Below, piece after piece: positions 1 through 27,704 of a stretch of DNA of 36,803 nt. The translations under genes and the position numbers were made by a program. This DNA is from Raillietiella orientalis. Taxonomy: Eukaryota. Location: positions 372,001-408,803 of the forward strand of contig JAYWIR010000072.1 of assembly GCA_036172245.1 (NCBI GenBank). Reading direction: 5' to 3'. The notes below the pieces were generated by a model. It saw only the letters and a list, made by a program, of their open reading frames with translations. It was not told the origin of the DNA and did not search any database. Positions within the stretch are counted from its first letter, which is position 1. Every line of letters begins with the position of its first letter.

Positions 1-1619
1 GAGGACCTTCTCGCCATTATGCCCGTAAAAGACATGGGCTATTTCAAGGTGCGTTGCAAAGACGCTGCACTTGTGCAACGTTTGCTGCGCACCCCGTTGT
101 CGATCCGTGGCCAGAAGGTCTTCCCGGCCGCCATGGACGACTCATTTGTGGTGGAGATTTTCGACATCGAGTCGGAAATCTCCGATACTGATATTCGGAA
201 CGCGTTGGCGAAATTCGCAACGGTCCATGCGCTGTGGAGGGTGCGTAGCAACCTCAAGGACTTCCCGTCCATACACAGCGGAGTCGCTGGAATCCAGCTT
301 TGTGCCCGGACCGCCGTCTGCCTGCAAACTACAGCTGAATGACACGGTCGTTCACACGCAGTTCATCAGGCAAAGTAAAAACGTGCGAGCAATGCGGGAA
401 GGGGGGGCATTGTTTGGATAAATGCCCCTCTGGAAAATGCCGAATTATTACAAACTATCCGAACTCCAGTGAAAATTGCCCGGATCTTTTGCGAAGAAAG
501 GCAGCCGCAGAGCTCGATCTTAAAAAACAAAACGCGGATAAAAAGAAAAAATCTGCGAGAAACCTGGAGATTCCACGGCAGAAATTCCGAAAAAACGCGA
601 GGCGGAATGTCGCCCCAAAGCAGCAGGAAACCTCGCAAGCGAAGCCCGGCGCGCCCCCTCTCGCGGCAGGGAAGCCGCAAAAGAAAGGGTGCGGGGAATC
701 CGGGGCAATGGTAAGTCCCCCTAGGCGCAATAGCTGTCCTTCATAAGCACACTCAGCTCTTTCGGAGTTTTAGTAACCGGCGGGGACGTCAATCGACAAC
801 GGAGGTAAGGACACTTCCAGTACCGTCAGATTCATTCCTCCACCTCCTGCAGTGGCTGAGAAGCACAAATCGGGTAAGAAGGGTTATGCCGTGTCGACTT
901 TGAAAGTCGGCAAAGAAAAATCCGCGTCGAGATCCAACACCGCGAAAGCGGAGAAAAATCTCATGCCTTCGCAGTCGGATAGCAAGCTCTCGACTGGCGC
1001 GGATGCCATGCCAACGAAGGGATTAGAAGCCCTTCCGAAGGCACGGTCCATGACGAGCGTGTCGGAGCTATCGAAACTGCTCCAGTTTAAAGACGCGGAT
1101 GGCTTCAAAGATGGCAATGGAGCACAATCTCCATTTACGGCCTGCAGTGAACAATGAAGTAGGAGCCAGCAAGGTCCCTCGTTCTGTAGCTGCAGAGCAC
1201 GCACGCTGAAAACAACCTTCGGGAAAGCAGCCGTCACCAAAAGCGATGCCCTGGTGACGGAAAACGAAAACAGGACAGCTGTCAATCCAGCAGAACCTGT
1301 CACTGCTTCGCGGAAGGCCGAAATCCGATCGAACAGGCGCCGGTCGGACTCCGAAATGGATGCCGTTCCGATCACCGAGACGAGGACAACTCGTTCGAAA
1401 GCGTGTGCGCGCCGATCAAAAGTAGGCAGCCAGGCAACGCTCGCCGCGAAGCAACGCGAAGTCTCCACGAAACCCGACGGGGTTCAGCCTGGCGTGGAGG
1501 CATTACATGCATGCAGCACGACAGAGGACGGTGGCGACCGTCCCCTCCAGCCAGTCGTGCTGCTCGCCGTCTGCTCGCCGGATAAAGCGAGAAAAAAGCC
1601 GCCACCTTCCCAGCAGTAA
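1..1619 (+). pseudogene. A1 ORF1 (nucleic-acid-binding, zinc knuckle), partial and disrupted
   Basis: Fragments 19..342, 339..746, 852..1157 and 1254..1619 are collinear with A2 ORF1; contains CEQCGKGGHCLDKC; several indels and stops. Confidence 0.9.
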
Positions 1620-4600
1620 TGCGGGGAATCGCGTCTTCTCGTCGTCTGTCCGTAACGTGTTGGAACGTGAACGGACTGCAGAACGACGAGAAGAGGCGAT
1701 TAGTAGCCAACGCTCTGCGCCCCTTCGACCTCGCGCTCCTGCAGGAGATTCACGTAATCTCCGACGAGCAGGCAGCCGAAATCGAGGAGCGCGCAGGCGG
1801 AACGCTACATTGGCGGTGCGGCGGCGTACACACGTGCGGCGTCGCGTTCCTCGTAAGAGGAAAAATGGCGGAAGCGGTGCGTAGTGTTCGTTTCGATGAC
1901 AACGGACGGATAGGCCAGCTTGTCATCAAGTGGTCCGAGTCCATCGATCTCGTCGTTACGAACGTCTACGCGCCGAGTGGCTCTCGCTACCTCGAAGAAA
2001 GAGTAGCTTTCTTTGGTGAGGTGCATAGCCACTGGCTCAACAACTCCGGTTTCCAAGTGGCGCACCTCGTGGCTGGGGACTTCAACGTCCGCCTGCTCTC
2101 CGACGATTGGAGCCGCTTGAGGGAGCGCGCGCTGCCCATCGAGATGTGCGCGTCCGTGCACGCCGCCAACTTGATGGTCAGCGAACCTGGAATGGAAAGA
2201 TCGCTCGATCACGTTTTTCTCGATGAAAACCTGCATTCGCGTGTGGGTAGGAGAGGAAGATTGTTGACTAGGCTTTCTGACCAGCACAGGTTGGAGTTTG
2301 AGATCCTTCCGCCAGGCAGGGGACCTCCGTTGCAAAGCTGGAGAATGCAGGCGGATTGGCTTAGCCAACCGGAGGCTGCGGAGCATCTACGTGGATACCT
2401 CCGGGGCTTTGCCATTCAAGAACTTGCGGACTGGGACGATCTCAAAAGATCTGTCCGCGAGTTCTGCTGCCAATTCCCCTTGCACCGGCTTCCACGCGGT
2501 TTCGGAGAGGGCGTGGCCAACAGTAGAGACTTTCTGCAGGCCCGCACGTTTTCGAGACGCGCGGATGTCGGGCGTCTCGCAGAGTACAAGGCGAGGGCCG
2601 AGCGCCAGGTCTGGCAGTCCGGAGCAGCATGCCTGCTGGACGACAAAGGCCAGGAATGTTCGGCCCCAGCCGAAGTACGCCGCATTGTGAGACGCTACTA
2701 CTCCTCGCTCTACGCGGATTCCCCGACGGAGGATATTCTTTCTGAGATACTCCTGTCTCAGGATGCTCGTGTTGTCGGCGAGGAGGAACGCGAACGTCTC
2801 GACGAGCCCTTCACGGCGGATGAATTTTCGTCCGCCATCGCTGGGCTGAAGAGACGAAAGGCGCCAGGCGAGGATGGGCTCCCTGCAGAGTTTTATCAGT
2901 GCTTTGCAGTGGAGCTCATTCCTTTGATGCTGAAACTCGCGACGCTGATGAGTGAATCCGGAAATGTCCCTGATTCCTTCCGCTCAGCGAAGGTGCGTCT
3001 CCTGCCGAAAGGCGGAGACTTGCGCCAACTTAACAACTGGCGTCCGATCACCTTGGTGAACTCGGACGTCAAGTTGTTTTCCAAGCTGTGGGTCGCGCGG
3101 TTAGGAAGAATCGCGGAATCTGTGGTGAGCCCGGAACAAACCTACGCGGTTCCGGGACGATCCATGGAGGCGAACATCCTTTTCGCGAGTACATGGATGC
3201 AGCTGCAGGAAGTTGTGGCGCAGCAAAGCCAGGCTGCTGCGAAAGTCACTGCCGCAGGCAAAAAGAACAGGCGCCGACGGCAGGAGGAAACGCCAGGTGC
3301 CTTGGCGGTCGCGGTCGATCTCCACAAGGCGTTCGACTGCGTAAACCAGAAGCTGCTTTTGGAGCATATGGAACGCCTTGGGTTCCCGGCGCAACTCCTG
3401 CTGTATTTGCGCGCGTGCTGGCGCCACGCGCTAACCTGCATCACTTTTAGCGGCTGCCGCGTGTATGGTATTACCGTTCGTAGGGGCATCCGACAGGGCG
3501 ACAGCTTAAGCCCGTTGCTCTTCAGCATCTTCTTTGAGTTGGTGCTAAGAGCATACAGGCTGACGCTGTCTCACTTGCCAAGCTCCTGCACGGGAACGCC
3601 TGCCGTGGCCGCCTACGCTGATGACCTGCTTCTTCTGCACCCCATGTGCACCGCGGCGTCCAGTGTCGAGGATTTCTTCGACCTGATTCGTCGGGGAGCG
3701 GGCGTGAGCGTGAACAGAGAGAAGAGCGCGATCGTTCCTGTGGGTACGTCGTGGGAGGGGCAGTCCGACTGGATCCGCCTGGGGATCCCTACGGGCGGGT
3801 ACTTCAAGTACCTTGGCGTTTCGTCGGGTGCTTTCGGCGCAGGCAAAGCGTGGGCGGACTGTCTTCGGGAAGCAGATTTGGCCATCAGACCGTTCTTTAA
3901 CGGCAAGTTCACCTTGCAGGAACGGGCGACTATTTAGAACACCTTTGTGGCCCCGCTCGTCCGTCCCCTGTTTTTTGTTTTGGAGTCCCCCTATACGGCG
4001 AAACAGCGGGCTAAACGCCTGCTCAGGAACGCTCTCTGGGGTCCGGCGAGATCCAGGATCCGCCTTAAAGATTTGTCAGCTCCGCGTCGGGATGCTGGTT
4101 TGGGTATCTTGACAATGGAGCGAATCGGACTGCAGGTGCAGTTCCGACTGCTGGCACTGTGTGCCCAGCTATGGACATCCCCCCTGTGTGTGCCAGCTCG
4201 CATTCTCCTGCGGAGATGCGCCGGCAGCGGAGGATTTCTCTCGCTTTTGCCGGGCACTCAATACAGGAAGCGGGGTTTCGTGTTTCCATTGCGGCAGTTG
4301 ACCGCACTTCTGGAAGCACACTCTTGGATCTCCTGTCGCCCAATGAACTTTGAAGCTTGGCGGCAGGAGTCTGTTGAATCCTGGGCGGCGTTCCAAGGAA
4401 TACGCTTTGAAGATCTTCGCCCCCTGCGCCAATTTTTTCCACGATCCTTGGAAGAAGTACTCCAGGACGAGGTGAAGTTTTCTACCCTGGCTGCCACGCC
4501 TCTTGCCGCAGCGCTGTCTGCCCTCAGGGCAAGAAACGAAAGTTACCAACCGGCGAGGTGGAAGGTTGCCTGCACTATAGCGGGAAAAACCAAAATCCTT

Positions 4601-5212
4601 GGCGCCTGGAAGACAAGTGAGTTGGCGCACGCCGCCACTTTTAGTGTTACAGCAAAGGGACTCCTCCGGTGGGAAGAAGAACTTGCTGTCACCCCCGAAG
4701 AACTTGTAGTCCCTCCACAGTGTATGGACAGTTCGCTGCTCCCCCTTGCTTGGAAACAAGCCGTGCTGCTTTTCGTTCACTGGGGTTTTCAGTGCAACGA
4801 GCGTTGGCATCGTGACTCCGGGGGACTTGCGTCTGCGAACTGCGTTCGGTGCGGATCGACGGAGTCGCTTCCGCACCTACTTCTGGACTGCGGTGTCCTA
4901 CAAGGACTGTGGCGTAGGCTGGCAACAGCACTATTGCATCCCGTGGACACCGCAAGAGACTTGCTGCGACGAGTCTTCACGCCGAGCGGGCTTTCAGTAA
5001 GCGCAAGGATTGCAACCATCGGTTGCATACGCGCGATAGTTTCCGTCCGCCAGGCGTTGGTAATCAACGGACAGCACCAAGAGGTAATCAGCAAAGCATC
5101 CTTCTACATAGGAGCATCCGCTAGATGGCCTCATTTGACAGAGGAGACAAAGAGGAATCTCGCCGCAATACACCGCCGGTTTACACACCCTCATCAGCGG
5201 CCAACCCGGTGA
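1619..5212 (+). pseudogene. A1 ORF2: APE endonuclease, reverse transcriptase and C-terminal CCHC finger (~1197 codons), one premature stop
   Basis: Motifs WNVNGL, LQE, NVYAP, GDFN, SDQH (SDHH in A2); KAPGEDG, NWRPITL, DLHKAFD, GIRQGDSLSP, YADD, YLG; CVRCGSTESLPHLLLDC. TAG at 3935-3937 where A2 has TGG. Confidence 0.95.
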
Positions 5213-5495
5213 TCATTGCCCTACCCTCCATAAACTAAATTTGTATTTTCTTTTTACACCCGCGTCCCCATAGGCTCCGGAACATTTGAGGTGCTCATCG
5301 TTTAAATCCCCGTGAGTACGGAGCCTCACCAAAAACCCTTTTCCCTTCCCTCCAGTTTTTGATTTTTGTTTGTTTCCCCTCATTCCCCCCACGCTGCGAG
5401 CGGTTTGTTTACCAGGCCTGCGTGGCGGTAATTTTCCTATGTTCTCTGTCGTTCTGTTGGTTGGGGACATTGTCCCTGACCAGTTTATTATTATT

Positions 5496-5525
5496 AATAA
5501 ACGCCCCGGCGTGACCGGGTGATAA
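5496..5525 (+). other. 3'-terminal motif of A1: AATAAA plus CCCGG/CCGGG stem-loop
   Basis: aataaacgccccggcgtgaccgggtgataa; recurs at the ends of A2, B1, B2, C and E. Confidence 0.85.
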
Positions 5526-5534
5526 ATTTCAATC
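5526..5534 (+). repeat. Direct repeat ATTTCAATC flanking A2 (TSD-like; partner at 11441-11449)
   Basis: Identical 9-mer on both sides of A2; the right copy continues into the E endonuclease frame (D)FNLCLL. Confidence 0.75.
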
Positions 5535-5535
5535 G

Positions 5536-5550
5536 AGTGCGGACGTGTTT
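5536..5550 (+). promoter_or_regulatory. Conserved 5'-terminal motif of A2 (candidate internal promoter)
   Basis: AGTGCGGACGTGTTT; similar 15-mers at the 5' ends of C, B1 and H. Confidence 0.55.
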
Positions 5551-5612
5551 TTCTTCGCTCTCGTCTCCGTGCTTTCATCCGCTTCATCTTGGCGTCGTAC
5601 ATTTTGACGACG

Positions 5613-7534
5613 ATGTCGACCCAACTTGAAGCTACTGAAGTTGGAGGAACAGCATCCGGATCTGCAATCGCGGAACCGACGGCCGCCTCCACTTCGTCTT
5701 TCTCGCCAATGGAGAGGAGTTTTGCTGACGTTGCTGCCACAGCAGCCGTCAAAGGGAAACCACTCGACGAGTCGGAGTTGCGGGCACACGTAGCCCAAGG
5801 CTATAGACCTGCTCTCCGATATAAGGTGAGTGGTTTTCTTTCTGCGCGCGACGGGAATCAGTTCAACGATGAACTGACGCGTGTTGGCGTGCGGGAGGAG
5901 GACCTTCTCGCCATTATGCCCGTAAAATACATGGGCTATTTCAAGGTGCGTTGCAAAGACGCTGCACTTGTGCAACGCTTGCTGCGCACCCCGTTGTCGA
6001 TCCGTGGCCAGAAGGTCTTCCCGGCCGCCATGGACGACTCATTTGTGGTGGAGATTTTCGACATCGAGTCGGAAATCTCCGATACTGATATTCGGAACGG
6101 GTTGGCGAAATTCGCCACGGTCCATGCGCTGTGGAGGGTGCGTAGCAACCTCAAGGACTTCCCGTCCATACACAGCGGAGTCGCTGGAGTCCGGCTTACA
6201 ATGCCGGACCGCCGTCTGCTGCCTACCAAACTACAGGTGAATGACACGGTCGTTCACCTGTGGTTCGTGGGCAAAGTAAAAACGTGCGAGCAATGCGGGA
6301 AGGAGGGGCATTGTTTGGATAAATGCCCCTCTGGAAAATGCCGTTATTGCAAACTATCCGGGCACCAATTGAAAAATTGCCCGGATCTTTTGCGAAAAAA
6401 GGCAACCGCGGAGCTCCATTTTAAAAAACAGAGCGCGGATAAAAAGAAAAAATCTGCGAAAAACCTGGAGACCCCACGGCAGAAATTCGGTAAAAACGCG
6501 AGGCGGAATGTCGCCCCAAAGCAGCAGGAAACCTCGCACGCGAAGCCCTGCGCGCCCCCTCTCGCGGCAGGGGAGCCGCAAAAGAAAGGGTGCGGGGAAT
6601 CCGGGGCAATGGTAAGTCCCCCTAGGCGCAATAGCTGTGCTTTCCAAGCACGCCCGGCTCTCTCGGAGTTCAAGCAACCGGCGAAGACGCCAATAAGCAA
6701 CGGCAATAAGGACACTTCCAGTACCGTCAGATCCATTCCTTCACCTCCGGCAGTGGCTGAGAAGCCCAAATAGGGTAAGAAGGGTTGTGCCGTGTCAACC
6801 TCGAAAGTCGGCAAAAAAAAATCCGCGTCGCGATCCAAGACCGCGAAAGCGGAGAAAAATCTCACGCCGTCGCAGTCGGAGAGCAAGCTCTTGACTGGAG
6901 CGGATGCCATGCCAAAGAAGGGTAATAAGGTTCTTCCGAAGGCAGCGACCATTACGAGCGTGTCGGAGCCATTGGAAGTGCTCCCGTTTGAAGACGCGTG
7001 TGGCTACAAAGATGACAATGGAGCACAATCTCCATTTACGGCGCCCCGCGAAGTGAGGAACCGTAATGAAGTAAAGAAGACTTCAGCAAAGGTCCCTCGT
7101 GCAACTGCGCGTGAGCACGCTGAGAACGCGCTTGCCGGGAAAGCAGCCGTCACCAAAAGCGATGCTCTGTAGACGGAAAGAGACAACAGGACAGCTGTCA
7201 ATCCAGCAGAACCTGTGACTACTTCGCGGAAGGCCGAAACGCGATCGAACTTGCGCCGGTCGTACTCCGAAATGGATGCCGTTCCGATCACCGAGACGAG
7301 GACAACTCGTTCAAAATCGTGTGCGCTTTGATCAAAAGTAGGCAGCCAGGCAACGCTCGCCGCGAAAAAACGCGAAGTCTGCACGGAACCCGACGGGGCT
7401 ATGCCTGGCGTGGAGGCATTACATGCATGCAGCACGACAGAGGACGGTGGCGACCGCCCCTCCAGCCAGTCGTGCTGCTCGCCGTCTGCTCGCTGGATAA
7501 AGCGAGCAAAAAGCTGCCACCTTCCCAGCAGTAA
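5613..7534 (+). pseudogene. A2 ORF1 with two CCHC zinc knuckles and a long basic low-complexity tail
   Basis: ATG at 5613; RSFADV; CEQCGKEGHCLDKC and CRYCKLSGHQLKNC; premature stops (e.g. 6771-6773, 7170-7172); ends SQQ-TAA overlapping the ORF2 ATG. Confidence 0.9.
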
Positions 7535-10500
7535 TGCGGGGAATTTCGTCTTCTCGTCGTCTGTCCGTAACGTGTTGGAACGTGAACGGGCTGCAGAACG
7601 ACGAGAAGAGGCGATTAGTAGCCAACGCCCTGCGCCCCTTCGACCTCGCGCTCCTGCAGGAGATTCACGAAATCTCCGACGAGCAGGCAGCCGAAATCGA
7701 GGAGCGCGCAGGCGTAACGCTACATTGGCGGTGCGGCGGCGCACACACGTGCGGCGTCGCGTTCCTCGAAAGAGGAAAAATGGCGGAAGCGGTGCGTAGT
7801 GTTCGTTTCGATGACGACGGACGGATAGGTTAGCTTGTCATCAAGTGGTCCGAGTCCATCGATCTCGTCGTTACGAACGTCTACGCGCCGAGTGGCTCTC
7901 GCTACCTCGAAGAAAGAGTAGCTTTCTTTGGTGAGGTGCAGAGCCAGTGGCTCAACAACTCCGGCTTCCAAGTGGCGCACCTCGTCGCTGGGGACTTCAA
8001 CGTCCGCCTGCTCTCCGACGATTGGAGCCGCCCGAGGGAGCGCGCGCTGCCCATCGAGATGTGCGCGTCCGTGCACGCCGCCAAGTTGATGGTCAGCGAA
8101 CCTGGAATGGAAAGATCGCTCGATCACGTTTTCCTCGATGAAAACCTGCATTCGCGTGTGGGCAGGAGAAGAAGATTGTTGACTAGGCTTTCTGACCACC
8201 ACAGGTTGGAGTTTGAGATCCTTCCGCCAGGCAGGGGGCCTCCGTTGCAAAACTGGAGGATGCAGGCGGATTGGCTTAGCCAACCGGAGGCTGCGGAGCA
8301 TCTACGTGGATACCTCCGAGGCTTTGCCATTCAAGAACTTGCGGACTGGGACGATCTCAAAAGATCTGTCCGCGAGTTCTGTTGCCAATTCCCCTTGCAC
8401 CGGCTTCCACGCGGTTTCGGAGAGGGCGTGGCCAACAGTAGAGACTTTATGCAGGCCCGCACGTTTTCGAGACGCGCGGATGTCGGGCGTCTCGCAGAGT
8501 ACAAGGCGAGGGCCGAGCGCCAGGTCTGGCAGTCCGGAGCAGCATGCCTGTTGGACGACAAGGGCCAGGAATGTTCGGCCCCAGCCGAAGTACGCCTAAT
8601 TGTGAGACGCTACTACTCCTTGCTGTCCGCGGATTCCCCGACGGAGGATATTCTCTCTGAGATACTCCTGTCTCATGATGCTCGTGTTGTCGGCGAGGAG
8701 GAGCGCGAACGTCTCAACGAGCCCTTCACGGCGGATGAATTTTCGTCCGCAATCGCTGGGCTGGAGAGACGAAAGTCGCCAGGCGAGGATGGGCTTCCTG
8801 CAGAGTTTTATCAGTGCTTTGCAGTGGAGCTCATTCCCTTGATGCTGAAACTCGCGACGCTGATGAGTGAATCCGGGAATGTCCCGGATTCCTTCCGCTC
8901 AGCGAAGGTGCGTCTCCTGCCGAAAGGCGGAGACTTGCGTCAACTTGACAACTGGCGTCCGATCACCTTGGTGAACTCGGACGTCAAGTTGTTTTCCAAG
9001 CTGTGGGTCGCGCGGTTAGGAAGTATCGCGGAATCTGTGGTGAGCCCGGAACAAACCTACGCGGTTCCGGGACGATCCATGGAGGCGAACATCCTTTTCG
9101 CGCGTACATGGATGCAGCTGCAGGAAGTTGTGGCGCAGCAAAGCCAGGCTGCTGAGAAAGTCACTGCCGCAGGCAAAAAGAACAGGCGCCGACGGCAGGA
9201 GGGAACGCCAGGTGCCTTGGCGGTCGCGGTCGATCTCCACAAGGCGTTCGACTGCGTAAACCAGAAGCTGCTTTTGGAGCTTATGGAACGCCTTGGGTTC
9301 CCGGCGCAACTCCTGCTGTATGTGCGCGCGTGCTGGCGCCACGCGCTAACCTGCATCACTTTTAGCGGCTGCCGCGTGTATGGTATTCCCGTTCGTAGGG
9401 GCATCCGACAGGGCGACAGCTTAAGCCCGTTGCTCTTCAGCATCTTCTTTGAGTTGGTGCTAAGAGCATACAGGCTGACGCTGTCTCACTTGCCAAGCTC
9501 CTGCCCGGGAACGCCTGCCGTGGCCGCCTACGCTGATGACCTGCTTCTTCTGCTCCCCATGTCCACCCCGGCGTCCAGTGTCTAGGATTTCTTCGACCTG
9601 ATTCGTCGGGGAGCGGGCGTGAGCGTGAACAGAGAGAAGAGCGTGGTCGTTCCTGTGGGTACGTCGTGGGAGGGGCAGTCCGACTGGATCCGCCTGGGGA
9701 TCCCCACGGGCGGGTACCTTAAGTACCTTGGCGTTCCGTTGGGCGCTTTCGGCGCAGCCGAAGCGTGGGCGGAGTATCTTCAGAAAGCAGAGTTGGCCAT
9801 CAGCCCGTTCTTTAACGGCAAGTTTACCTTGCAGGAACGGGCGACTATTTGGAACACCTTTGTGGCCCCCCTCCTCCGTCCCCTGTTTTTTGTTTTGGAC
9901 CCCCCCTATGCGGCAAAACAGCGGGCTAAGCGCCTGCTCAGGAACGCTCTCTGGGGTCCCGCGAGATCCAGGATCCGCCTTAAAGATTTGTCAGCTCCGC
10001 GTCGGGATGCTGGTTTGGGTATCCTGACAATGGAGCGAATCGAACTGCAGGTGCAGTTCCGACTGCTGGCACTGTGTGCCCAGCTATGGACATCCCCCCT
10101 GTGTGTGCCAGCTCGCATTCTCCTGCGGAGATGCGCCGGCAGCGGAGGATTTCTCTCTCTTTTGCCGGGCACTCAATACAGGAAGCGGGGTTTCGGGTTT
10201 CCATTGCGGCAGTTGACCGCACTTCTGGAAGCACACTCTTGGATCTCCTGCCGCCCAATGAACTTTGAAGCTTGGCGGCAGGAGTCTGTTGAATCCTGGG
10301 CGGCGTTCCAAGGAATACGCCCTGAAGATCTTCGCCCCCGGCGCCAATTTTTTCCACGATCCTTGGAAGAAGTACTGCAGGACGAGGTGAAGTTTTCTAC
10401 CCTGGCTGCCACGCCTCTTGCCGCAGCGCTGTCTGCCCTCAGGGCAAGAAACGACAGTTACCAACCGGCGAGGTGGGAGGTTTCCTGCACGATAGCGGGA

Positions 10501-11127
10501 AGAACCAAACTCCTTGGCACCTGGAAGACAAGTGAGTTGGCGGACGCCGCCACTCCTCGGGTTACTGCAAAGGGACTCCTCCGGTGGGCAGAAGAACTTG
10601 CTGTCACCCCCGAAGAACTTGTAGTCCCTCCACAGTGTATGGACAGTTCGCTGCTCCCCCTTGCTTGGAAACAAGCCGTGCTGCTTTTCGTTCACTGGGG
10701 TTTTCAGTGCAACGAGCGTTGGCATCGTGACTCTGGGGGACTTGCGTCTGCGAACTGCGTTCGGTGCGGATCGACGGAGTCGATTCCGCACCTACTTCTG
10801 GACTGCGGTGTCCTACAAGGACTGTGGCGTAGGCTGGCAACAGCACTATTGCATCCCGTGGACACCGCAAGAGACTTGCTGCGACGATTCTTCACGCCGA
10901 GCGGGCTTTCAGTAAGCGCAAGGATTGCAACTATCGGTTGCATACGCGCGATAGTTTCCGTCCGCCAGGCGTTGGTAATCAACGGACAGTACCAAGAGGT
11001 AATCAGCAAAGCATCCTTCTACATGGGAGCATCCGCTAGATGGCCTCATTTGACAGAGGAGACAAAGAGGAATCTCGCCGCAATACACCGCCGGTTTACA
11101 CACCCTCATCAGCGGCCAACCCGGTGA
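7534..11127 (+). pseudogene. A2 ORF2 (EN-RT-CCHC) with two in-frame stops
   Basis: ORF pieces 7534..7833, 7936..9585 and 9619..11127 share one frame; TAG at 7831-7833 and 9583-9585; same motifs as A1. Confidence 0.95.
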
Positions 11128-11410
11128 TCCTTGCCCTACCCTCCATAAACTAAATTTGTATTTTCTTTTTACACCCGCGTCCCCATAGGCTCCGGAACAT
11201 TTGAGGTGCTCATCGTTTAAATCCCCGTGAGTACGGAGCCTAACCAAAATCCCTTTTCCCTTCCCTCCAGTTTTTGATTTTTGTTTGTTTCCCCTCATTC
11301 CCCCCACGCTGCGAGCGGTTTGTTTACCAGGCCTGCGTGGCGGTAATTTTTCTATGTTCTCTGTCGTTCTGTTGGTTGGGGACATTGTCCCTGACCAGTT
11401 TATTATTATT

Positions 11411-11440
11411 AATAAACGCCCCGGCGTGACCGGGTGATAA
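11411..11440 (+). other. 3'-terminal AATAAA plus stem-loop motif of A2
   Basis: Identical to 5496-5525. Confidence 0.85.
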
Positions 11441-12691
11441 ATTTCAATCTATGTCTGCTAACAGGTGAGCCAGAAACACAAGAGAACGCGATGAACGAGT
11501 TGTGCGCCGCCATGCGTGCGCGCAACTTGTTCGCGGGTGAGAGGGGAATGGTCCGCAGCTTCGACCACGTCTTCCTCGACGCTGACCTGTGTTCACGGGT
11601 CGGCAAACGGGGGAGGGTTGCGTCGACGTTGTCGGACCATTCCTGGTTAATTTTCGAGTTGCGGCCTCGTGACAAGTGACCGCCATCCAGGGATTTGCGT
11701 CTGCCGGGGGACTGGACGCGACTCTCAGGTGCGAAGGAATACCTTCGCGAATACCTGAGAGGGGTCACGCTCCGTAATCTCCAGGACTGGGACCTTTTTA
11801 AGGAATCGGTCCGCGAGTTCTATGAGCAGTTCTTCCTGGATCGCCTGCCCCTCGGATTCGGCAAGGGTGCTCGCAAGCATCGGGCCTATTTACAGGCTCG
11901 TAGGTACGAAAGAACCCCTTATGTCCGTCGCCTGGCCGAGTACCGCGCCGGGGCCGAACGCCAAGCCTGGCAATCCGGGTCGGCCAGCTTGCTGGACGAC
12001 CAGGGCCGGGAATGTTCTTCCCCGGCGTCGGTACGGCATCTCGTGCGGAGTTTCTATTCCTCCCTTTACGCCAGGGAGCCCCCGGATCGAGACGCCCCTG
12101 GGCGCTTGCTTCCGGATGGCGCCCCGGCAATAGGAAAGGAGGAGATGGAAAGCCTACTCGAGCCTTTTACCACCAGCGAAATTCTCTCCGATATCAAAAG
12201 GCTCAAGAAGCGTAAAGCTCACGGGAAGATGGCTTGCCCGCGGAGTTGTTTCAGAGCTTTGCGGCAGAGCTGGCACTATTGCTGCTTAAGTTGATCAGGC
12301 TGATCCGAGACGCAGGCGATGTTCCCGCCTCGTTTCGTTCAGCCAGAGTGAGGCTCCTTCCGAAATGGGGACATCTCAGGGATTTAAAGAACTGGCGTCC
12401 GATCACGATCGTGAATGCGGACGCCAAGTTGATCGCAGGGCTATGGGCTTCGCGTCTGGGGCAGGTGGCAGAATCCGTAATTAACCCGGAGCAGACTTAT
12501 GCTGTTCGCGGGCGAAGTATGGATGCCATCCTCTTCTTCGCAAGCACATGAGTGCACCTGCAGAGAAAAGAAAAAAAAGGGATAGGGAAAGTCGGCAACC
12601 CCACATTGGGGCCGCCAGCCGGGCTGGGAAGAAACCCCCGGGCGGGGAAGGGAGTCCTAGCGCTCGCAGTCGATCTCCACAAGGCGCTCGA
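11441..12691 (+). pseudogene. Element E, ORF2 middle segment (EN C-terminal half to RT DLHKALD), cut by A2 on the left and B1 on the right
   Basis: FNLCLL...SFDHVFL...SDH, NWRPITIVNAD, PEQTYAV, LAVDLHKALD; stops and a frameshift. Confidence 0.9.
12678..12691 (+). repeat. TSD of B1 (CACAAGGCGYTCGA; partner at 27711-27724)
   Basis: cacaaggcgctcga versus cacaaggcgttcga, 13/14 identical; removing 12692-27724 restores AVDLHKA(L/F)DCVAQKLLL. Confidence 0.9.
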
Positions 12692-12722
12692 TTTTCACCC
12701 GGATTTCGCCGGGGCGTTTATT
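12692..12722 (-). other. 3'-terminal AATAAA plus stem-loop motif of B1
   Basis: Minus strand reads aataaacgccccggcgaaatccgggtgaaaa. Confidence 0.85.
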
Positions 12723-12910
12723 GTCAAAATAAACTTTTACAAAGACGTGCGGTGGCTGGACCGTTGCTCCAGCGAAGCACGAAGAAACACAGAGCCTGCC
12801 GGGTCACCGGTTCGCAGACCGGTACGGTCCACCACAACAGCAGGGGGAAGGGGGAAAAGCAAAAAACAAAACAAAAAAGAAAAGAAAAGTTGGGAGGGTA
12901 AAAGAAGGGA

Positions 12911-15900
12911 TCACAGTTGCTGGTGGGGCCGTTGCATCCTTTGCAGGATGCCGGCAAGCTCCTTCTGTATTCCTCAGTCCAGGTGGGGCCATCGGGACGC
13001 CCTCCTCAGGAACTGGGAGGCTGGCTGGATGGCACCCTGGACGCGTTGTCCTCCAGTAGCCTTGCTCCAAGCGGTGACGATCCCGCGTAGGCAGCACAAA
13101 GCTACTAACGAGGCCGCTGGCCGAAGGGCGTCGGCAACCAAGAGGGCTTTCTGTGCGTCCCTAAGGTTGCCTCAGGGGATTCCGATGACCGCGGCAAAGC
13201 GAAAACAAAGGGGCCGTAGGGCAACAAAATCCACTAGAAGGTGGATGAGGGACTCCCGTTCCCCACACCTGACGCAATTGGGGTCCACCGCATCCCAGGT
13301 CCAGTGGTGTCGGCGGGCGTTGCAGGGGAGTCCCCAGTGCTGCAACAGGAGAGTCGACTCCTGCCATTTTAAGGAAAGAGCGGAAGTGTTCATGAGCACC
13401 GGGGGCCACTTCAGATGTTCTATGGGAACATCGAGCAGCGCGCCCTAGCGCAGAAGTCCATTGGGAGGCGTACTCGGGGTCGCAGCGTCTGTTAACTGGT
13501 CCGTCTTCCACTCTCCTATCTTCTTCTCCTTTCCGGAGATTGTTACTGTAACCACCCACTTCGCCGCAACATCGCTGACCAGATCTTCCATCAGGAAAGG
13601 CAGCGCAGCAGGGAGGGCGGCTCTTCCTGCCCACGCTCTCTTCTTTGGATCCTTCAGGATCTCGCGGAGCGTGCACCTTCTGTAACCCCTAAACAGGAAC
13701 CTTCGTTCCTGTTGGGAGCGTTGCATGCCGAACTGTCCCCACGTTCGAACCATTTCCTGCAATCAGGCACTACCGTTAAACGGGCGACAGGCGAGCAATC
13801 CTGCGTTTTTCCGATACAGCGCAGCCACCCTCCGTAGCTGGAGTCCGCATCGGTTGACGCGGCGACGGAGTGCAAGAAACGACGTCAGTCCCGTCTTGGC
13901 GGTGGATTGCTGGAGAAGGAGACGTGCAGGGACGCACCAACAGGTGCACCACAACTCTGGAACGAGTGCCGACAAGAGGAACTGGAGCTGAAGCTCCAGC
14001 CGCTCCAGCGTCAGGAGGCCCAGACCACCATCCCTACGAGGAGCGCACAAGTCCTTTAAGCGGGCTCGGGCCCTCCCGTTGCCCCAAAGGACGATACGGA
14101 GGAGGTCCTTTGTCCGCTTTTTAATCCTCTCTGTGGGGGGCAAACAAAAAGCAGGGGGCGGAGGGGAGGAGCCGCGAACGTGTTCCAAACCGCGGCCCGT
14201 TCATGCAGGAAGAACCTGCCGTCCTGGAACGGGCCGATCGCCTCCTGAGCCTTCTGAAGGCAGCCGGACCACGCTTCCGCAGGGGAGTAGTCCCTCAACG
14301 GCACACCAAGATACTTGAAGTACCTCACCGTGGGGATCCACAAACGGACCCAGTCCTGCTGCCCTGCCCACGCCGCACCAACTGGCATCACGGACGACTT
14401 CGCCCTGTTCACCGTAAGTCCGCTTCCCCGATGCAGCAGGTCGAAGAACTCCTCGACCGCCGCACCCGGGGTGGACATAGGGAGCAGCAGCAGAAGGTCG
14501 TCCGCGTATGCTGAAACGGCCGGCGTACCGGCTCAGTCGTGCGGCAGGTGCGCCAGAGTTCCCCTGTACGCTCTCAGTACCAACTCAAAGTAGGTACTAA
14601 AGAGCAAGGGGCTCAGGCTGTCTCCCTGCAGGATCCCACGGCGCACCGGCACGCCGTGCACGGTCTGCCTGCTGAAAGTAACATTGATGAGCGCGTCGCG
14701 CCAGCAGGAGCGCAGATAGGCCACTAATGAGGCCGGGAAGCCCAAGCGTTCCAGAAGCTCCAGAAGGAGATTCTGGTCGACGCAATCGAATGCTTTTCGC
14801 AAGTCGATTGCGACCGCAAGGGCTCCCTCCCCCACCCGACCATCCGACCCCTTGCCGGCGCACGCACCTAAATTCCGGCTGCGCACCAAGCTCCTTTCTT
14901 GTTGGAGCTCTAGCCAGGTGGAAGCGTGGAACAGGTTCGCCTCCATGCTTCGCCCGGGAACAGCATATGTCTGTTCCGGGCTGATGAAGATGCTGGCAAC
15001 CCGTCCCAGACGCTCTGCCCAAACCTTTGCTAGCAACTTGGCGTCCGCATTCACTATTGTGATGGGACGCCAGTTGTTCATGCTCCTCAGATCTCCTCCC
15101 TTAGGGAGGAGCCGCACCTTTGCCGGACGAAACAAGGCGGGAACGTCACCTGTTTCGCGTATCAGCAAGGTAAGTTGCTGTACCAGGGGAGTAAGCTCAG
15201 TCGCGAAAGTTTGATAAAACTCCGCGGGCAGGCCGTCCTCCCCTGAAGCCTTTCGCCTCTAGAGCTTTCCGATGGCCGAGAGGATCTCGTCCATCGTGCT
15301 AGGCTCGTCGAGGGTCTTTCTCTTCTCCTCCCCGATCGCTGGAGCGCCTTCCGGAAGCAGGAGTCGTGAGACGTTCCTCTCCGAAGGTGCCCTGGCATAC
15401 AGGGAGGAGTGTTTACTCCGCAGCAGGCTGCGGATTTGGGCAGGTGCCGAGTGCTCCTGGCCCTGATCGTCCAGTAAGCTGGCCGATCCGGACTGCCAGG
15501 CTTGGCTCTCGGCTCCCGCTTTGTATTACGCCAGCCTGCGGATATCGGGGGTCCTAGCGTAACGACGGGCCTGCAGGTAGGCTCGTTCGTTACGGACCCT
15601 AATCCCAAAACCCGTGGGTAGGAGGTGCAGAGGGAACTGGTCGCAGAACTCCTGGACCGACCGCTTGAAGCGGTCCCAATCCTGGAGTGTCCGCAGACTG
15701 AAGCTCCGTATCAACGTGCGGAGATGTTCCGCCGCGTCCGGGAGCTTCAGCCAGTCCCCTGGGAGACGCCACGCTGACGATGGGGGGCCCCTGTCGCGCC
15801 GATGGATCTCGAGGACTAGCGGGCGATGGTCGGACAGCTCGCACGGTAACCTGCCGCGACTGCCCACAAGAGGGCACAGGTGCTCGTCAAGAAACACGTG

Positions 15901-16338
15901 GTCAATGCTGTCTTCCATCCCCGGTGCACTGGCCAACAGATTACAGGTGTGCACCGCCATGCACACCTCGTTGACCAGGCCAAGCTCGGGATTCTGCTCA
16001 TCTGGTTTCAGGCAAACGTTGAAATCGCCTGCAACTAGATGGGCATTCCGCACGCCTGCTTCGTTCAGCCAGTCTCGCCGGAGGGCAAGGAAAAACTCTT
16101 TTTTCGCCCTCCTGTTCATCAGGTCTTTCCGCTCGGTGCTTACACGTTCGTGACGATCAGATCGATCGAGTCGGACCACCTGTGAGTCAGCTGGCCGACA
16201 CGACCGTGATCGTAGAACCGCACGCCCCGAGCCGCGGCCTCGATGGCTGGCCGAAGCAGGAAGGCGACACCGCAACTTTTCGCTCTCCCACACCTGTACC
16301 ATAGCCGCCCTCCGGAGATCCGTTCGATCTCTTGCGCT
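12911..16338 (-). pseudogene. B1 ORF2, major 3' portion (EN remainder, RT, CCHC finger), with frameshifts and stops
   Basis: GDFN, SIDHVFL, SDH, NWRPITIVNAD, DLRKAFD, GILQGDSLSP, CVRCGERESLIHLLVD; near-identical to the reverse complement of B2 ORF2. Confidence 0.93.
16327..16338 (+). repeat. TSD of C (ATCTCTTGCGCT; partner at 25777-25788)
   Basis: Identical 12-mer at both ends of C; occurs once at the uninterrupted homologous site in B2 (30353-30364, opposite strand). Confidence 0.92.
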
Positions 16339-16455
16339 CGTACAGTGCAGACGTGTTTCCGCGTCTATCCACGCCAACGATCGGGCAACTTTGTGCCTGC
16401 GTTTTTGCTCGCACTTGTGTGTTCCTGTGCAATCTACCAAGTAGCATAGTGTAAC

Positions 16456-17701
16456 ATGGGCAGTACACAGGATAGTGTGGAGGAGCAAGCCACTGGATGC
16501 ACTTCAGCTGCACTTGAAGGGGCTGCATCCTCCGTAATGGTTTCCTCGCCCCCGGTGCGGAGTTACGCCGCGGTTACCTCCCAAAGACCAGGACCCTGCG
16601 ACGCGGAGTTCCAGGCATATGTGTCATCAGGATACATGCCTGCACTCCGTTATAAGGTCAGTGGGCCACTTAACGGGAGAATCGGTCGTGAGCTCAAAGA
16701 TGAGCTCGTCCGGATAGGGGTTCTCGAGGAGGAACTCCTTGCCATAATGCCAGCTGGCAGGATGAAATATACAAAGATTCGGTGCAAGAACGCAGCACTT
16801 GTGAAGCGCCTTCTCCGTACGCCGTTGACCATCAATGGCAAGGAAGTCCTACCTACCGCGATGGACGACTCTTTTGTCGTTCAATTGTGCGACATCGAAC
16901 CGGAAATCTCCGACCGCGATGTCGTAAGTGTGCTGACGAAGTTCGCCACCGTGCACGCTCTGTGAAGGAGGCCAAATCCTCTTAAGGATTTCCCCTCTGT
17001 CCACATTGGACAAGCCTCCGCGCGGATCACCGTCGCGAACAGGCGTGTTGTGCCTGAGCAGATGCAGGTAAACGGCACGGTCGTTCACCTGTGGTTCATA
17101 GGCCAGACTCGCGCGTGCGAGAAGTGCGGCAAGGAGGGGCACCGAATTAATGAGTGCCCTTCTCCAAGATGCCGCTATTGCAAAGATTCCCGGTACGAAA
17201 TCAAAAAGTGCCCGGTACTTGCAAGAAAAAGAGCCGCAGCGGCAATTCGTCGGGTTCAAGAGACCACTGCACGAAAAGCCGCAGCGGAAAATAAAAAACG
17301 TCGTCCGCAAAAACTCGCAAAAAACCACGAGCGATCCGCGGATGAAAAGAAAGCATCCCCGCCCGCAACGCCTCGAAAGGGGAAAGTCACGGCGGGGAAG
17401 CCAATTAAAAAGGGGCCCGAGGGTTTGACGCGTGCCGTGCCTTCCCTCTCTGCCGAACTTGCAGGCACCTCTCCGAGCCAGGAACCAGGGAATCTCCGTA
17501 ACACCCTGGAGGGAAAGGTAGGAAAACAGGAAGACCGCAACAGTGCGAAGACTTCTTGCCCCGTTCCGTTGTCCCTTCCGAGTTCCGGACAGCCTCACTG
17601 CAGCGCAGGCTTCACTGCAAAGGCTACGAAAGCCGTAAAAAGCAGCGTCGCGACGAGCAAAAGCACGCTGCATGCAGTCGCTCCATCGCCGACTCGGCAG
17701 G
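16456..17701 (+). pseudogene. C ORF1, N-terminal part (zinc knuckles)
   Basis: Clear homology to A ORF1 (PALRYKVSG, AMDDSFVV, TVVHLWF); CEKCGKEGHRINEC; TGA at 16963-16965 in place of Trp. Confidence 0.9.
17685..17701 (+). repeat. Imperfect TSD of D (partner at 21176-21191)
   Basis: atcgccgactcggcagg versus atcgccgttcggcagg; C ORF1 rejoins in frame (..SPTRQ|ERSNLPTVKKVTPLPLF..). Confidence 0.8.
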
Positions 17702-20700
17702 TTTCCCCAAGTCCCACAAGGGGTGGGGTAAGTTTATTTTTCTATAAAAATACAAAATTTACATTCGCAATCTCATTCACTCAATACAAACATTTTGCAC
17801 TTGGGGGTCCTTGGGTTGCACTAGAGTTCTGCTTTTCAGGGGGGAATTCCAGCTGGATGGTCCCGGGCGTCGTCCTGGATTCTCTTCAGGATGAATCGGT
17901 ACGTCCAGGCGTGGATCTTCCCGCAGTTCCTGATGCCGATTTCCCTCTTCAAGAGCCCTTGTAGGATCTCCATCCGTGGTGCGGCTCTCCTGGCTTTCCT
18001 CATTTTGCACCACCGCACAAGTATGGCGGTGATCAAGAGGGCTATGGTCGTCCTCACCATGGGATTCTAACAGGGAACATTACCATCCCCATGAAACATG
18101 CCGGCGAGGATCTCCATAACGAACTTGTTGGTAAGTCCTATGATCCTTTTCAGGATCAGCCAGTCATGCAGCAGTGTGGGACACGTCAAGACGTGAAGTC
18201 TCGTGTCGTCGTCGCCACATACTGGGCAGTCTCGGTCTTCCCGTCTTCCTGTGAAGTGCTGCAATCGGGACCCACTCTGGATTCCTCCGTAATAAAACAT
18301 CAGGAGGTTATCCTGGGTGCCCGGCGGGAGGTCACTCCTCCAGAGCGTCGTGCCGATCGCTAACAGGCTGAACCGTTCACTCTCGTAGCGTTCGGTGGCT
18401 TCCTGGAGGGCACTGGTGTCACGGTCGTTTTCTTGGATAAGCCTTCAAAGGTTTGTTCTGGATACCCTCGACCATGCGAAGTCGTTGTGGTTTAACCACA
18501 CTTCGCGGGTCCTGTGGGTAAACCTTCCTAACATCATCTCTGTATACCGAAGTATACGTGTTTGATGTAGGTAGCCTCCTCGCCTCCACTCCTGGATTTG
18601 CAGTAGGGTAACTCTGGACCGCTGCTAGATCCAGCATCTCGTGTCCGGCGGGACAGGAAGCAACCAAGGGATCAGCAGGATGGACTCGTCTTGCCAGAGT
18701 TCCCTGCTTCGCGGCACGATCTTGATTTGGTGCTTCCGCACCAGCCGTTGCTTCCTCCTTCAGGTGGGGTCGATCGTTATCCATTCCCCTACTTTGCCTA
18801 GCAGCGCAGTCATCAGGCCTTTCGAGTTGTTAAGCAACAACGCGTAGGCCCTGTGCGCCGCATACGGCCAGTCATCCCAGTAAGTTGCAATGTCCAGGAT
18901 GTGTCGCGTATCCATGATTTCCATGGAATGTGCAAGCGACTTCATCCCGGAACCGCCTTCTTACCTGGGACGACACAGGGGTTTCAGTCTTACTCTTGGG
19001 CGATAGTGGCCCCAGAGTGTTTTTCTTACCAGCTTGTCGAACTCCCTAGTAGTGTCCTTGTCCATCCTCGCGAAGGCCGCTCCGAAGAGCACTTTCGGAA
19101 GGAGTACTCCGTTCCATATGTTGCCTTTCGCTTCATCCCAAGGTCCGTTCGGGTGTACTTGGCTGCTTCCGTGGCCGTTTTCCCCAGGATTTCCTTCCAC
19201 AGCAGCTTCGACGCAGCGCCGTCGGCGATGTAGACTCCCAGGTACTTGGCCGTGTCCACCGTACGGAATCCACTACCCGTTAGAGTGGAGAGATCCAGTA
19301 TTCCGACGGGCAAAAGCTGGCTCTTCTGGGAATTGATTTTTAAGCCCAAGCCATGTTCCATCAGGTCCAGCACATCCAGAAACGCACGCTGATTTTTCTC
19401 TCCCTTGATGAAGAAGAGTAGATCATCGGCGTATGCCAGATGGGTAAGACGCTGGCTATCGATGGTAATCCCGCTTGGTCGTCCGCTATTCTCGATAAAG
19501 GACGACAACGCCTCCATATAGATTACGAACAGCATCGGACTTAGCGAGTCGCCCTGTCGGACTCCTCGTTCCATCCTGATTGCTGCCATCTCCTGGCCGT
19601 TGATCTTGAGCTGGCAGTACTGGTTCTGGAGTACCGCCCTCACGAAGTTGCTGAAGTGTTCCGAAAGCCCTAGCTTCTCCAGAAATTTAAGCAGCATCCC
19701 GTGGTCGATGGAGTAGAAGGCCTACTCCATGTCAGTGAACACCAGCACCAGGTTCTCGCCGACGTATCGACTGAGTCCAACAGTGGCCTGGGCACACTTG
19801 ACATTGTCCGGCATGTGTCGTCCTGGGACTGCACATGTCTGGACCGGAGAGATCAGCCTCGACATGACCTTGCCTAAGCGGTTGGACCAGATCTTTGCCA
19901 ACCACTTGGCAACGGAGTTTAGGATCGAGATTGGCCTCCATTGGGCGATCTGGGTAGAGTCGCCTCCTTTCGGCAGCAATCTCATCCGACTCTCGTAGAA
20001 GGACTGAGGTAGTCTGCCTTCTTCCCGGATGCAGAGGGTCAACTGGTGGAACAAGGGCAGGTAGGCGTGCACGTACCGCTGATAGTGCGTGATGGGTACA
20101 CTGTCAGGGCCCGCTGCCACGTCCTTGCGAAGTTGCCCAAACGCAGTCTTCACCTCTTCTTCGGAGAACTCCTCCTCCAGTCTGTTCCGCTGGAGGTCGT
20201 CGGTCCTCTTCTCGAGATAGCCCAAGAAGGCCTGTTGACTAGAGCGACACAGCTGTTGTCGCCTGAAGTGTTTCGTGTACTGCCTGTGAAAGGCATCCAC
20301 AATGTCCTCACACGAATGTCGCTTTTGGCCGTCGTACTGGATGCAGAAGATATCGGTTGCCAGATTTCTCTTCTCCAGCACGCCGACTTCCCCTTTTATG
20401 TTATTGAGGACGTACCGACTCTCGTACTGATCGAAGTACTTTGAGAGGGAGCGATCTTGGATGTTCAGCTCCCGGTACGCCTCTTGTTTCAAGCGCCTAT
20501 CCCCGAACTGCATGTTCGCAAACCGGTGTATCCTGTGTCTCAGGCTGTCCCAGTCGGCGACTCTTCGGATTGTTGTTGCCCTGAGAATCGCCTCCAGGAC
20601 AGCCTGATGTCCGGGATGGGTTTCGAACCAGGCGGGCATGCTGATGAGCGCCGCCCTGGTGCCTTGCCTCCGCCGAGGATTCTCCGTTCTTAGGGAAAAC

Positions 20701-21175
20701 CGCACCAGGGGGTGATCGGACACCGTGGTCATAATGTCTCGAAAACCCTGGATGCGGTTCCCAAGTTCGGTGCTGTGCAGGACGTGATCGATCGGCTTGT
20801 GACTTGCAGTTCGCCACACCAGTCCGAACTCGTCGGATAACCGCCGATACGCCGTCCTTCCTCTGGCGTCTTCGGAGTGAGTGATCTCATCCAATATGTT
20901 GAGATCGCCAGCAACAATCACGACGTCCTTGGAAGCAACCTTTTCACGGAGTGCTGCATGCAGCGCCTCCGCACAACGATGTTTTAGCCTGTGCGGCCCG
21001 TACACGTTCACCAGGATGAGGTGAACAGTAGCGGACCAGGCCAGTCGCACGCCGATGATTCGTCCGGGTTGGGGACAGAACACTTTTAGAATAGTGGGGG
21101 CCAAGTTGTTCTTGATTAGGTCCGCCACTCCCTGCGTGTTCCGTTCTCCCTCGCTGACGAAAATCTGCCCGTTGA
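17702..21175 (-). mobile_element. Non-LTR retrotransposon copy D, divergent family, 5'-truncated within the endonuclease
   Basis: Starts in EN (..TQGVADLI..); no ORF1; ends AATAAAC-hairpin-AAA; flanked by an imperfect TSD. Confidence 0.9.
17836..21175 (-). pseudogene. D ORF2 (partial EN, RT, CCHC finger), several stops and frameshifts
   Basis: NVYGP, GDLN, PIDHV, SDH, QWRPISILN, GVRQGDSLSP, YADD, YLG, CPVCGDDDTRLHVLTC. Confidence 0.9.
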
Positions 21176-21190
21176 ATCGCCGTTCGGCAG

Positions 21191-21850
21191 GAGAGGAGCA
21201 ATCTCCCGACTGTCAAGAAGGTGACTCCGTTGCCGCTTTTTAAAGGCGTAGCGAAAACAACGCCCCCAGAGAACGCAGCGAAAATCCCGGAGGTTTCCGC
21301 AACTACTGTCGCGGAAGCCTTCAAAAATCGCGAAGGCGAATGGAAGGTTGTGGAGAGGAAGAAAGAAAAATCTGCAAAAAAAGCTCCGCAACCTCCATCC
21401 CTGAGCTCTTCCAAAGGAAAAAGCAGTCGCGGGAATACGAAAACACGCGCGGCTTGTGACTCTTCCAAGGAAAAAGCCAGCGCCTTCAACGCGTGCAAGT
21501 CCGCTTTTGTGACCGCCGAGAAGACCATTCCGGTGCAATCGGACGGATGCAAGCGCACGTCGATCGTGCGAGCATCAGACTACGCAAAGGAGTCCGATAA
21601 CGCAGCTGAACGACGCGTTACTCGTGCGGGAGCGAGCGCCCGCAGGGCTGAAGCCCTGAGGCGTGACACACTCGCCGCGGAACGGCGAGTGCTCACCCCG
21701 GAACCCACAGGTTCTGCACCCGGAGAGGAGCACCCGATTACGTGCAGCACAGTTGAGGCCGGTGGCGACCGCGCCCTCCAGCCCGTCGTGCTTCTTACTG
21801 CCCGCTCGCCATGTGAGGCGAGCACCACGGCCTCGCTTTCCCAGCCGTGA
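21191..21850 (+). pseudogene. C ORF1, C-terminal part
   Basis: Ends CSTVEAGGDRALQPVVLL..SQP-TGA, homologous to the A ORF1 end; TGA overlaps the ORF2 ATG. Confidence 0.88.
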
Positions 21851-24800: not shown

Positions 24801-25423
24801 CAAAATAGCGGGAGTCAGTAAGCTCCTCGGCAGCTGGACGACAAAGGAGCTGGTGCAAGCCGCCACACCTCGGAATCGGGCGAAGGGACTGCTTCGGTGG
24901 AGCGAACATTTCAGTGTGCCCCCCCGGAGAGATAGTGGTTCCCCCCGTTTGTTTGGACAGCTCCGTGTTCCCCCTTAAGTGGAAACAAGATGTGCTGCTC
25001 TTTTTACATTGTGCATTTCACTGTAATAGGCAGCGAAGTAAAGTTTCCGGGGGAGCCGCTTTGCCAAACTGTTCAAGCTGCGGAGAGATCGAGTCTTTTC
25101 CGCACCTTTTGCTGGACTGCGGTGACCTCCTGGAACTGTGGCGAAGGCTCACTTCGGCCATCATGCCACAAGGAGGCACTGCCATTGATGTGCTGCGGCG
25201 CTTCTTCAGCAGAAATGGACTTTCGGTTGGCGCGATTGTCGCAAACATGTGTTGCGTTCGCGCCATCGTGAAGGCCCGCTACGCCCTGGAGTTGTCATCG
25301 CAGCGAAGGGAGGCTCACCTGCTTGCAGCTCAATTCATGGAGAAGGCTTCAAGGTGGTCTCATCTTCGTGACAAGGTGAATGAGGACATCACTGGCATAC
25401 ATCGCCGGTTTACACACCTTTGA
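21850..25423 (+). pseudogene. C ORF2 (EN-RT-CCHC), several stops and a frameshift
   Basis: WNVNGL, LQE, NVYAP, GDFN, SDH, NWRPITL, DLHKAFE, RQGDSLSP, YADD, CSSCGEIESFPHLLLDC. Confidence 0.94.
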
Positions 25424-25746
25424 GAACGGCGTAATCCGGTGACCCCTGCGACCTCTTGCCCACCCATACCCCGTCCCCGTTCGCTCGTTAAAATTTCCGG
25501 TGCCCATGCTTTTATCCCCGTTTCTTCCAGAGCGATCCCAAAGACCCTTATCCCGTCCTCCTTATTCATTGTTTTTATTTTATTTTGGTTTCTTTGTGTT
25601 CCTCGCTTCCCCACACCCTTCACAAAACTGTAACTCTGGCCTGCGTGCCAGCAATTTTCTTTTTATTCTTGTTCAGTCGTCGGTTGGGAGTTTGGTTCCC
25701 AACTGGTTTATTTTGTATAATTGCTTTTTCTCGTTATGTTATATGG

Positions 25747-25776
25747 AATAAACGCCCCGGCGTCAACGGGTGAGAA
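25747..25776 (+). other. 3'-terminal AATAAA plus stem-loop motif of C
   Basis: aataaacgccccggcgtcaacgggtgagaa. Confidence 0.82.
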
Positions 25777-25940: not shown

Positions 25941-25954
25941 TACTGCTGGGAAGA

Positions 25955-27616: not shown

Positions 27617-27689
27617 TGCTGCCTGATCGACCACCGAACCACACGACGCTTCCACTGGGAGAGACTTCCTGGCACGAGGAGCACCGAGA

Positions 27690-27704
27690 AAACACGTCCA
27701 CCCT
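27690..27704 (-). promoter_or_regulatory. Conserved 5'-terminal motif of B1
   Basis: Minus strand AGGGTGGACGTGTTT(T), a few nt inside the TSD; boundaries approximate. Confidence 0.5.

Follow-up and report, generated by a model that had tools for sequence, protein, structure and literature searches.

Why should two full-length copies of one retrotransposon stand head to tail inside the endonuclease gene of a relative, at exactly the same codons? The question is raised by a 36,803-nucleotide stretch of the Raillietiella orientalis genome (positions 372001-408803 of contig C72, JAYWIR010000072.1, from an assembly of 210 Mb in 491 contigs), hereafter the window, which is a nest of related long interspersed nuclear elements (LINEs). 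Its order runs from the 5' part of a host LINE of family E through a first copy of family A (A1) and a second one (A2) to the 3' part of E, and ATTTCAATC stands at all three joints of this array, the outermost of which lies upstream of the window. We conclude that A is very probably an autonomous non-LTR (non-long terminal repeat) retrotransposon of the L1 group, with an endonuclease of the apurinic/apyrimidinic (APE) type, that inserts sequence-specifically, oriented in sense, into its sister family E (several subfamilies), where it enters the endonuclease gene at the codons for the catalytic G-D-F-N.

An earlier note, made from the letters of the window alone, had placed A1 and A2 head to tail with ATTTCAATC after each. 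This holds, as the 9-mer occurs within the window at positions 5526 and 11441 only, and the two copies are 94.75% identical across 5562 aligned columns. A1 is a full-length copy that fills positions 1..5525 (+); its 5' end and the first ATTTCAATC lie in E's GDFN codons 363-372 bp upstream of the window. This junction, to which the note had pointed, is found 363 bp upstream (G000:C72:371638) and reads E's ...KAHLIAG-G, then ATTTCAATC, then A1. The middle copy of the target duplication, ATTTCAAT(C), spans 5526..5534 (+), where base 5534 may be the first base of A2, and A2 itself is 5,906 bp long (5535..11440, +). The third copy (11441..11449, +) makes up E's D (second and third base)-F-N codons, the frame running on after A2 as D-F-N-L-C-L-L-T-G-E-P, as the note had read it. 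Host E, here of the E-beta type, resumes at this point with the remainder of its endonuclease and the start of its reverse transcriptase (RT), up to the HKALD codons (11441..12691, +). The G-D-F-N motif aligns with L1 G144-N147, which includes catalytic D145 and N147 (numbering by hand count); in L1, D145A nicks at 3% and D145A/N147A retrotransposition is 0 (PMC1950540). Each hit by A cuts E's catalytic Asp/Asn codons off from the remainder of the gene, which should leave that E copy inactive. The catalytic codons would be a durable landing site, since active E elements could hardly alter them.

Other copies of A show how regularly this site is used. Among the 40 best matches to each end of A2, of which 30 were retrieved per end, the site follows all 30 3' ends (28 exact, 2 with a single difference; E continues after 18 of them and another A after 12) and precedes all 30 5' ends, which adjoin E in 24 cases and another A in 6; this favors the first of the note's two alternatives, insertion twice at one specific target. 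A pattern of any D-F-N codons followed by the A 5' end matched 118 joints; by eye, 77 of the 100 listed follow host codons and 23 follow another A, with ATTTCAAT in 97 and A's own ACTTCAAC in none. We also found 61 exact empty E sites, each with a single copy of the 9-mer, and the GDFNL frame is kept in all 25 that were read. Because the empty sites hold the 9-mer once, its repetition around A is a target-site duplication. Filled E sites are about as numerous as empty ones, roughly 90 against these 61, a rough comparison given that the two patterns differ in strictness. Taken together, most copies of A stand at one nucleotide of a multicopy target, this can be seen at both ends, and empty targets exist. 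A2's own G-D-F-N-V codons, GGGGACTTCAACGTCC (7990..8005, +), differ from the target and were not found occupied, and the families' own GDFN sites were uninterrupted in all sequences examined (30 of A, 17 of B, 3 of D and 1 of G).

The A 3' terminus (11411..11440, +) consists of AATAAA and a short GC hairpin without poly(A), and its tail resembles those of the sister families. A 19-nt pattern from this tail has 150 exact matches, 93 of them followed by ATTTCAAT. When 33 of the remaining 57 were read, 20 belonged to a different family with loose flanks and 13 were A-group copies, mostly older and 67-96% identical to A2, of which 10 lie at D-F-N-type sites in hosts that are in some cases only about 65% identical to E. 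We rejected the 19-nt tail as a marker of the A family on these counts. The other family that carries it (L170-L188, L200-L206) is dispersed on large contigs, with loose flanks that begin mostly with AC, and is possibly a non-specific or weakly specific sister.

The note had equated the 9-mer with the D-F-N codons. The position in E's GDFN codons stands, and the duplicated target is probably 8 bp long (ATTTCAAT), the C in ninth place belonging to A as its first base. Evidence for this comes from three young loci and one array whose 5' joint has C where the 3' joint has T, G or A (two of these loci have variants in common and count as one), and from an older full-length A copy that has ATTTCAAC on both sides and then different bases; a 9-bp duplication is less likely. 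The empty target, GGAGATT-TC-AATCTCC, is an interrupted palindrome in which 14 of 16 positions are self-complementary; A, B and D reach 6 of 16 in their own sites. Dyad symmetry as a rule for all of these families was not apparent by eye in the targets of B, D or E.

We propose that A inserts by target-primed reverse transcription, whereby the protein encoded by its second open reading frame (ORF2p) would nick at GAAAT^CTCC on the bottom strand and at TCAAT^CTCC on the top one, as the junctions suggest. A cut at AAT^CTCC on each strand of the palindrome would give a stagger of exactly 8 nt. After insertion the context of the first nick would be kept at the 5' joint only, so that later copies would mostly land upstream of earlier ones, and A1 and A2 would be one such double hit. 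Tandem arrays of 2-3 or more A copies occur, and in 11 of 13 scored arrays the less diverged copy is the one farthest 5' (sign test p=0.022; two further arrays were not scorable), including 3 of 3 arrays picked via their 3' copy. The idea that A spares itself through the first-nick bases alone was weakened, since ACTT-type sites are sometimes filled.

The endonuclease that would make these cuts is shortened. The spacing from GDFN to SDH is 65-67 amino acids (aa) in A, B and E-beta versus 74-107 (median 85) in 48 scorable of 56 relatives, and the A, B and E-beta endonucleases are about 20 residues shorter where L1 has a target-probing hairpin. The structural model of the A endonuclease has no strands between residues 185 and 196, and on this model the protein seems to be without the betaB6-betaB5 hairpin (L1 T192-S202) found in the L1, Tx1L, R1 and TRAS endonucleases, which is not a clade-defining feature. 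Deleting the L1 loop cuts nicking to 10% and alters specificity (PMC1950540). The main rival to a sequence-specific endonuclease is that RNA-DNA pairing accounts for most of the specificity: transcripts reading through into the downstream ATTTCAATC flank would anneal to the nicked strand and steer an endonuclease of loose specificity to the same target. The target does follow every young A copy, A is without a poly(A) tail, the shortening falls at the hairpin that probes the target in L1, and read-through pairing has been proposed for R1 (PMC2718515) and raised for L1 (PMC1950540). Yet the 5' joint is just as precise as the 3' joint, and older copies have host-type 8-mers on both sides (L218). 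Moreover, AATAAA stands 24 nt before the A terminus, and 3' cleavage is expected near such a signal. On balance we consider pairing rather unlikely to be the main determinant, and it is not mutually exclusive with the sequence-specific insertion by A that we favor.

The note's second alternative was an old tandem duplication, which, together with unequal exchange of one inserted copy, would explain the head-to-tail arrangement directly; two other tandem pairs have clustered variants in common, and the chimeric host E (described below) shows that recombination has occurred at this locus. To compare the copies we aligned 18 full-length A copies (6 of 22 sequences were interrupted or partial, and 4 of those were dropped). 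A1 and A2 differ by 4.7%, and the nearest relative of each is on another contig (3.5% away for A1, 2.4% for A2). They have no pair-private variants in common, and the 7 non-majority states that they do share are also present in 2-6 other copies. Their lesions differ, as the note had observed of the stops: A1 has an ORF2 stop at aa 773 and an ORF1 frameshift, and A2 has ORF2 stops at aa 100 and 684 and ORF1 stops at aa 387, 520 and 573. Shared private inactivating mutations together with random flanks elsewhere, which the note had named as evidence against targeting, are therefore not what we see, as no stop is shared and the flanks are fixed. Nor are tandem pairs closer to each other than other pairs (mean 4.5% apart vs 4.2% for non-tandem pairs). 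Duplication is refuted for A1 and A2 unless it came right after insertion, before any mutation, and we give it very little credence. The comparison supports repeated targeted insertions, and the double copy is itself an expected by-product of site-specific insertion.

We regard as equally improbable that A entered E once and the two then spread together as one composite, or that E copies passed A to one another by gene conversion, even though two C91 loci share variants in a conversion-like manner. Four A copies are 1.1-1.4% apart in flanks that are 3.9-16.9% apart, and the presence of such near-identical copies in far more diverged hosts of different subfamilies excludes hitchhiking with the host; in addition, arrays hold unrelated A copies, and older A-group copies lie in other host families. 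An assembly artefact (repeat expansion or collapse) is the least credible explanation of all: the contigs of X1, the single public run in which the element occurs, do not bridge the A-A joint, but A1 and A2 are 4.7% different throughout, A-A joints occur on many contigs (the 23 of 100 listed 5' joints counted by eye above), and the same run, which may be the source sample, shows the E-A and A-E joints as loose ends.

Several points weigh against targeted insertion as we describe it. The 60 sampled ends are the best matches to the A2 ends, and young copies are over-represented among them; 33 of the 57 non-matching tails were read, and 3 of the 13 further A-group tails lie off-site (L187, L199, L208). 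Variant 8-mers (ACTTTAAT, ACTTCAAT) are tolerated at filled sites, and the rule by which A would spare its own site is only loosely defined as a result. The positions of the cuts are deduced from the junctions. The polarity count is biased by the choice of arrays and references, with four 5' copies also serving as references, and the window is one of its two exceptions, the distance to young copies being 3.3% for A1 and 2.6% for A2, so that either of the two may have come first. Finally, 2 of 7 complete tandem pairs have clustered private variants in common (13 in L068/L069 on C92; 7 in L080/L081 on C91). The clustering suggests conversion between neighbours, and together with the chimeric E it indicates that conversion and recombination act in these nests.

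The coding capacity of A agrees with an autonomous element. ORF2 is 1197 aa long in one intact natural copy, with the Pfam domains of an N-terminal APE-type endonuclease (PF03372) and then an RT (PF00078), and ORF1 is 640 aa long in another copy, with two CCHC knuckles read by eye and no Pfam match. In A2, the corresponding ORF1 (5613..7534, +) is broken by stops, and its own stop overlaps the ORF2 start (TAATG); ORF2 (7534..11127, +) encodes the APE-type endonuclease, the RT and a C-terminal Cys/His motif, interrupted at aa 100 and 684. No RNA dataset was listed among those in which element A occurs. The nearest solved protein to the A RT is human L1 ORF2p (E 1.7e-44, vs 7.1e-15 for R2), a coarse comparison as the solved RTs compared are those of L1 and R2 only. 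The endonuclease model (predicted local distance difference test score, pLDDT, 90.1) matches the L1 endonuclease 8sp5 with a Z score of 25.6 and a root-mean-square deviation of 2.5 over 214 aligned residues, and APE1/ExoIII structures score within about 1-2 Z of it. Two ORFs, zinc knuckles in ORF1, the lack of LTRs and the target duplication fit an L1-group (APE-type) non-LTR retrotransposon. Membership in the R1 and R2 clades does not fit, because the target is E coding sequence rather than 28S ribosomal DNA (rDNA) and the endonuclease is N-terminal and APE-type rather than C-terminal and restriction-like as in R2. The note's comparison with R1, R2 and Tx1 elements is apt for R1 and Tx1 with regard to mechanism and not apt for R2, which has a different endonuclease. 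In a tree that took in 30 database proteins, a single clade (support 96/99) unites A, B, D, E-alpha, E-beta, G and J on a long branch shared with one unnamed database protein (P0001). Their RT regions are 66-75% identical to each other, and the homology-search matches, all unnamed or distant, included no named Tx1 sequence.

The sister families also insert into each other. The note had supposed that a second family aims at the catalytic codons of a relative, and A indeed does so alongside B, which inserts antisense at the KAFD-type codons of the RT, both in E and J at this locus and in A at L073, also in tandem, and leaves a duplication of 14 bp. B's own motif reads DLRKAFD; the targets seen read DLHK, DLQK or similar. 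E-alpha tails, read by eye in 25 cases, run 18 times into B ORF1, 4 times into another E-alpha and 2 times elsewhere, with 1 at a contig end. These insertions close a loop, from A into the endonuclease codons of E-alpha, from E-alpha into B ORF1, and from B into the RT codons of A. E-beta inserts antisense near GFG[EG]G codons, and D lies antisense in B's endonuclease gene just past the LQEIH codons (window 16338-25776, +), flanked by ATCTCTTGCG(C); the targets are not all catalytic codons. It is possible, and we put it forward tentatively, that one LINE lineage has diversified into a closed guild in which the genes of one member serve another as a fixed landing site, the whole making up a non-transitive loop, while every member leaves its own version of the motif untouched; specificity would come from a hairpin-less endonuclease that cleaves a palindromic target at the same motif on either strand. 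Through such a loop, competing retrotransposons would keep one another's copy number in check.

Site-specific APE LINEs, tandem re-insertion and the targeting of other transposons are already known. Tandem re-insertion is on record for R1, SINEU-3 and Utopia-1_NVit. Zepp is known for self-insertion. Like Zepp and ZeppL of green algae, A is an L1-group LINE in dense clusters, but the clusters in Chlamydomonas comprise one family each, at putative centromeres, whereas A avoids itself and hits a sister (bioRxiv 2022.06.16.496473). The ancestral-type R1 of Drosophila 28S rDNA, also an APE-type site-specific LINE, forms tandem arrays at its normal site parted by duplicated target, and each further copy goes into the duplicated target at an earlier copy's 5' end; its target is rDNA and its duplication 14 bp, whereas the RT of A is nearest to L1 among solved structures and the target is another LINE's coding sequence (PMC2718515). 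Tx1L of Xenopus, crocodilian Tx1-Mar, Tx1-8_Crp, Tx1-4_AMi and Tx1-9_AMi, and SINEU-3 resemble A as L1-group elements that target other transposons, with tandem insertions around a duplication, but the targets named in the passages considered are DNA transposons or LTR elements rather than sister non-LTR elements or catalytic codons, and no reciprocal targeting is described there (PMC4494074). Group II intron twintrons of Methanosarcina acetivorans and Thermosynechococcus likewise home repeatedly and site-specifically into related retroelements to form nested arrays, but they are prokaryotic, RNA-guided and splice out, whereas A cannot splice and breaks its host gene (PMC4424553, PMC2882425). 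In the literature covered, which excludes most subscription papers, Repbase Reports and the Tx1 target lists of PMC4494074, we found no account of a non-LTR element directed at the catalytic codons of a sister, of a targeting loop, of a spared own GDFN like that of A, or of an endonuclease apparently without that hairpin. What makes A of interest is its choice of target, its avoidance of itself, the loop and the shortening of its endonuclease. The usual explanation for site-specific LINEs is that they hide in multicopy host DNA where they do no harm. The safe harbour of A is the catalytic core of a competing relative, so that insertion doubles as attack. Related APE endonucleases with different strict targets and a shortened recognition surface form a natural series for studying how specificity changes, and the loop makes theories of transposon competition testable in one genome.

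The rest of the window continues the nest. A family B copy, with D and others nested inside, lies antisense in E's KAFD-type codons with a 14-bp duplication (12692..27710, -), and it is followed by a 3' part of E of the E-alpha type (27711..29817, +), whose tail abuts B ORF1, the E-alpha target. The host E is a chimera, being E-beta before the B insertion (11441-12691) and E-alpha after it (27711-29817). Its two ends lack a common duplication, and it probably arose by recombination between B copies in different hosts. A further B tract spans 29816-33981 (+), and a distant L1-group element is nested in D (17725-21180, -), its RT region about 32% identical to that of A and its place outside the guild clade. 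The D tail is nearly identical to the A tail. Elsewhere in the genome, young A copies are found mainly on small contigs (under about 0.5 Mb) and, on the larger ones, in clusters. Another family lies antisense in the A 5' untranslated region, about 45 bp from the start (L015:1454; G000:C53 near 299400), and a further one has entered E antisense at the GVTL[RQ] codons, some 340 bp beyond the A site (L016, L022); the alignment of several E copies with empty sites breaks off at this same offset (343). E ORF2 lacks an ATG at the place where the ORF2 of A and B begins, and an ACG follows the ORF1 stop region (L151:1525-5190, -; E copy upstream of the window), a sequence arrangement from which E ORF2 may use a non-AUG start.

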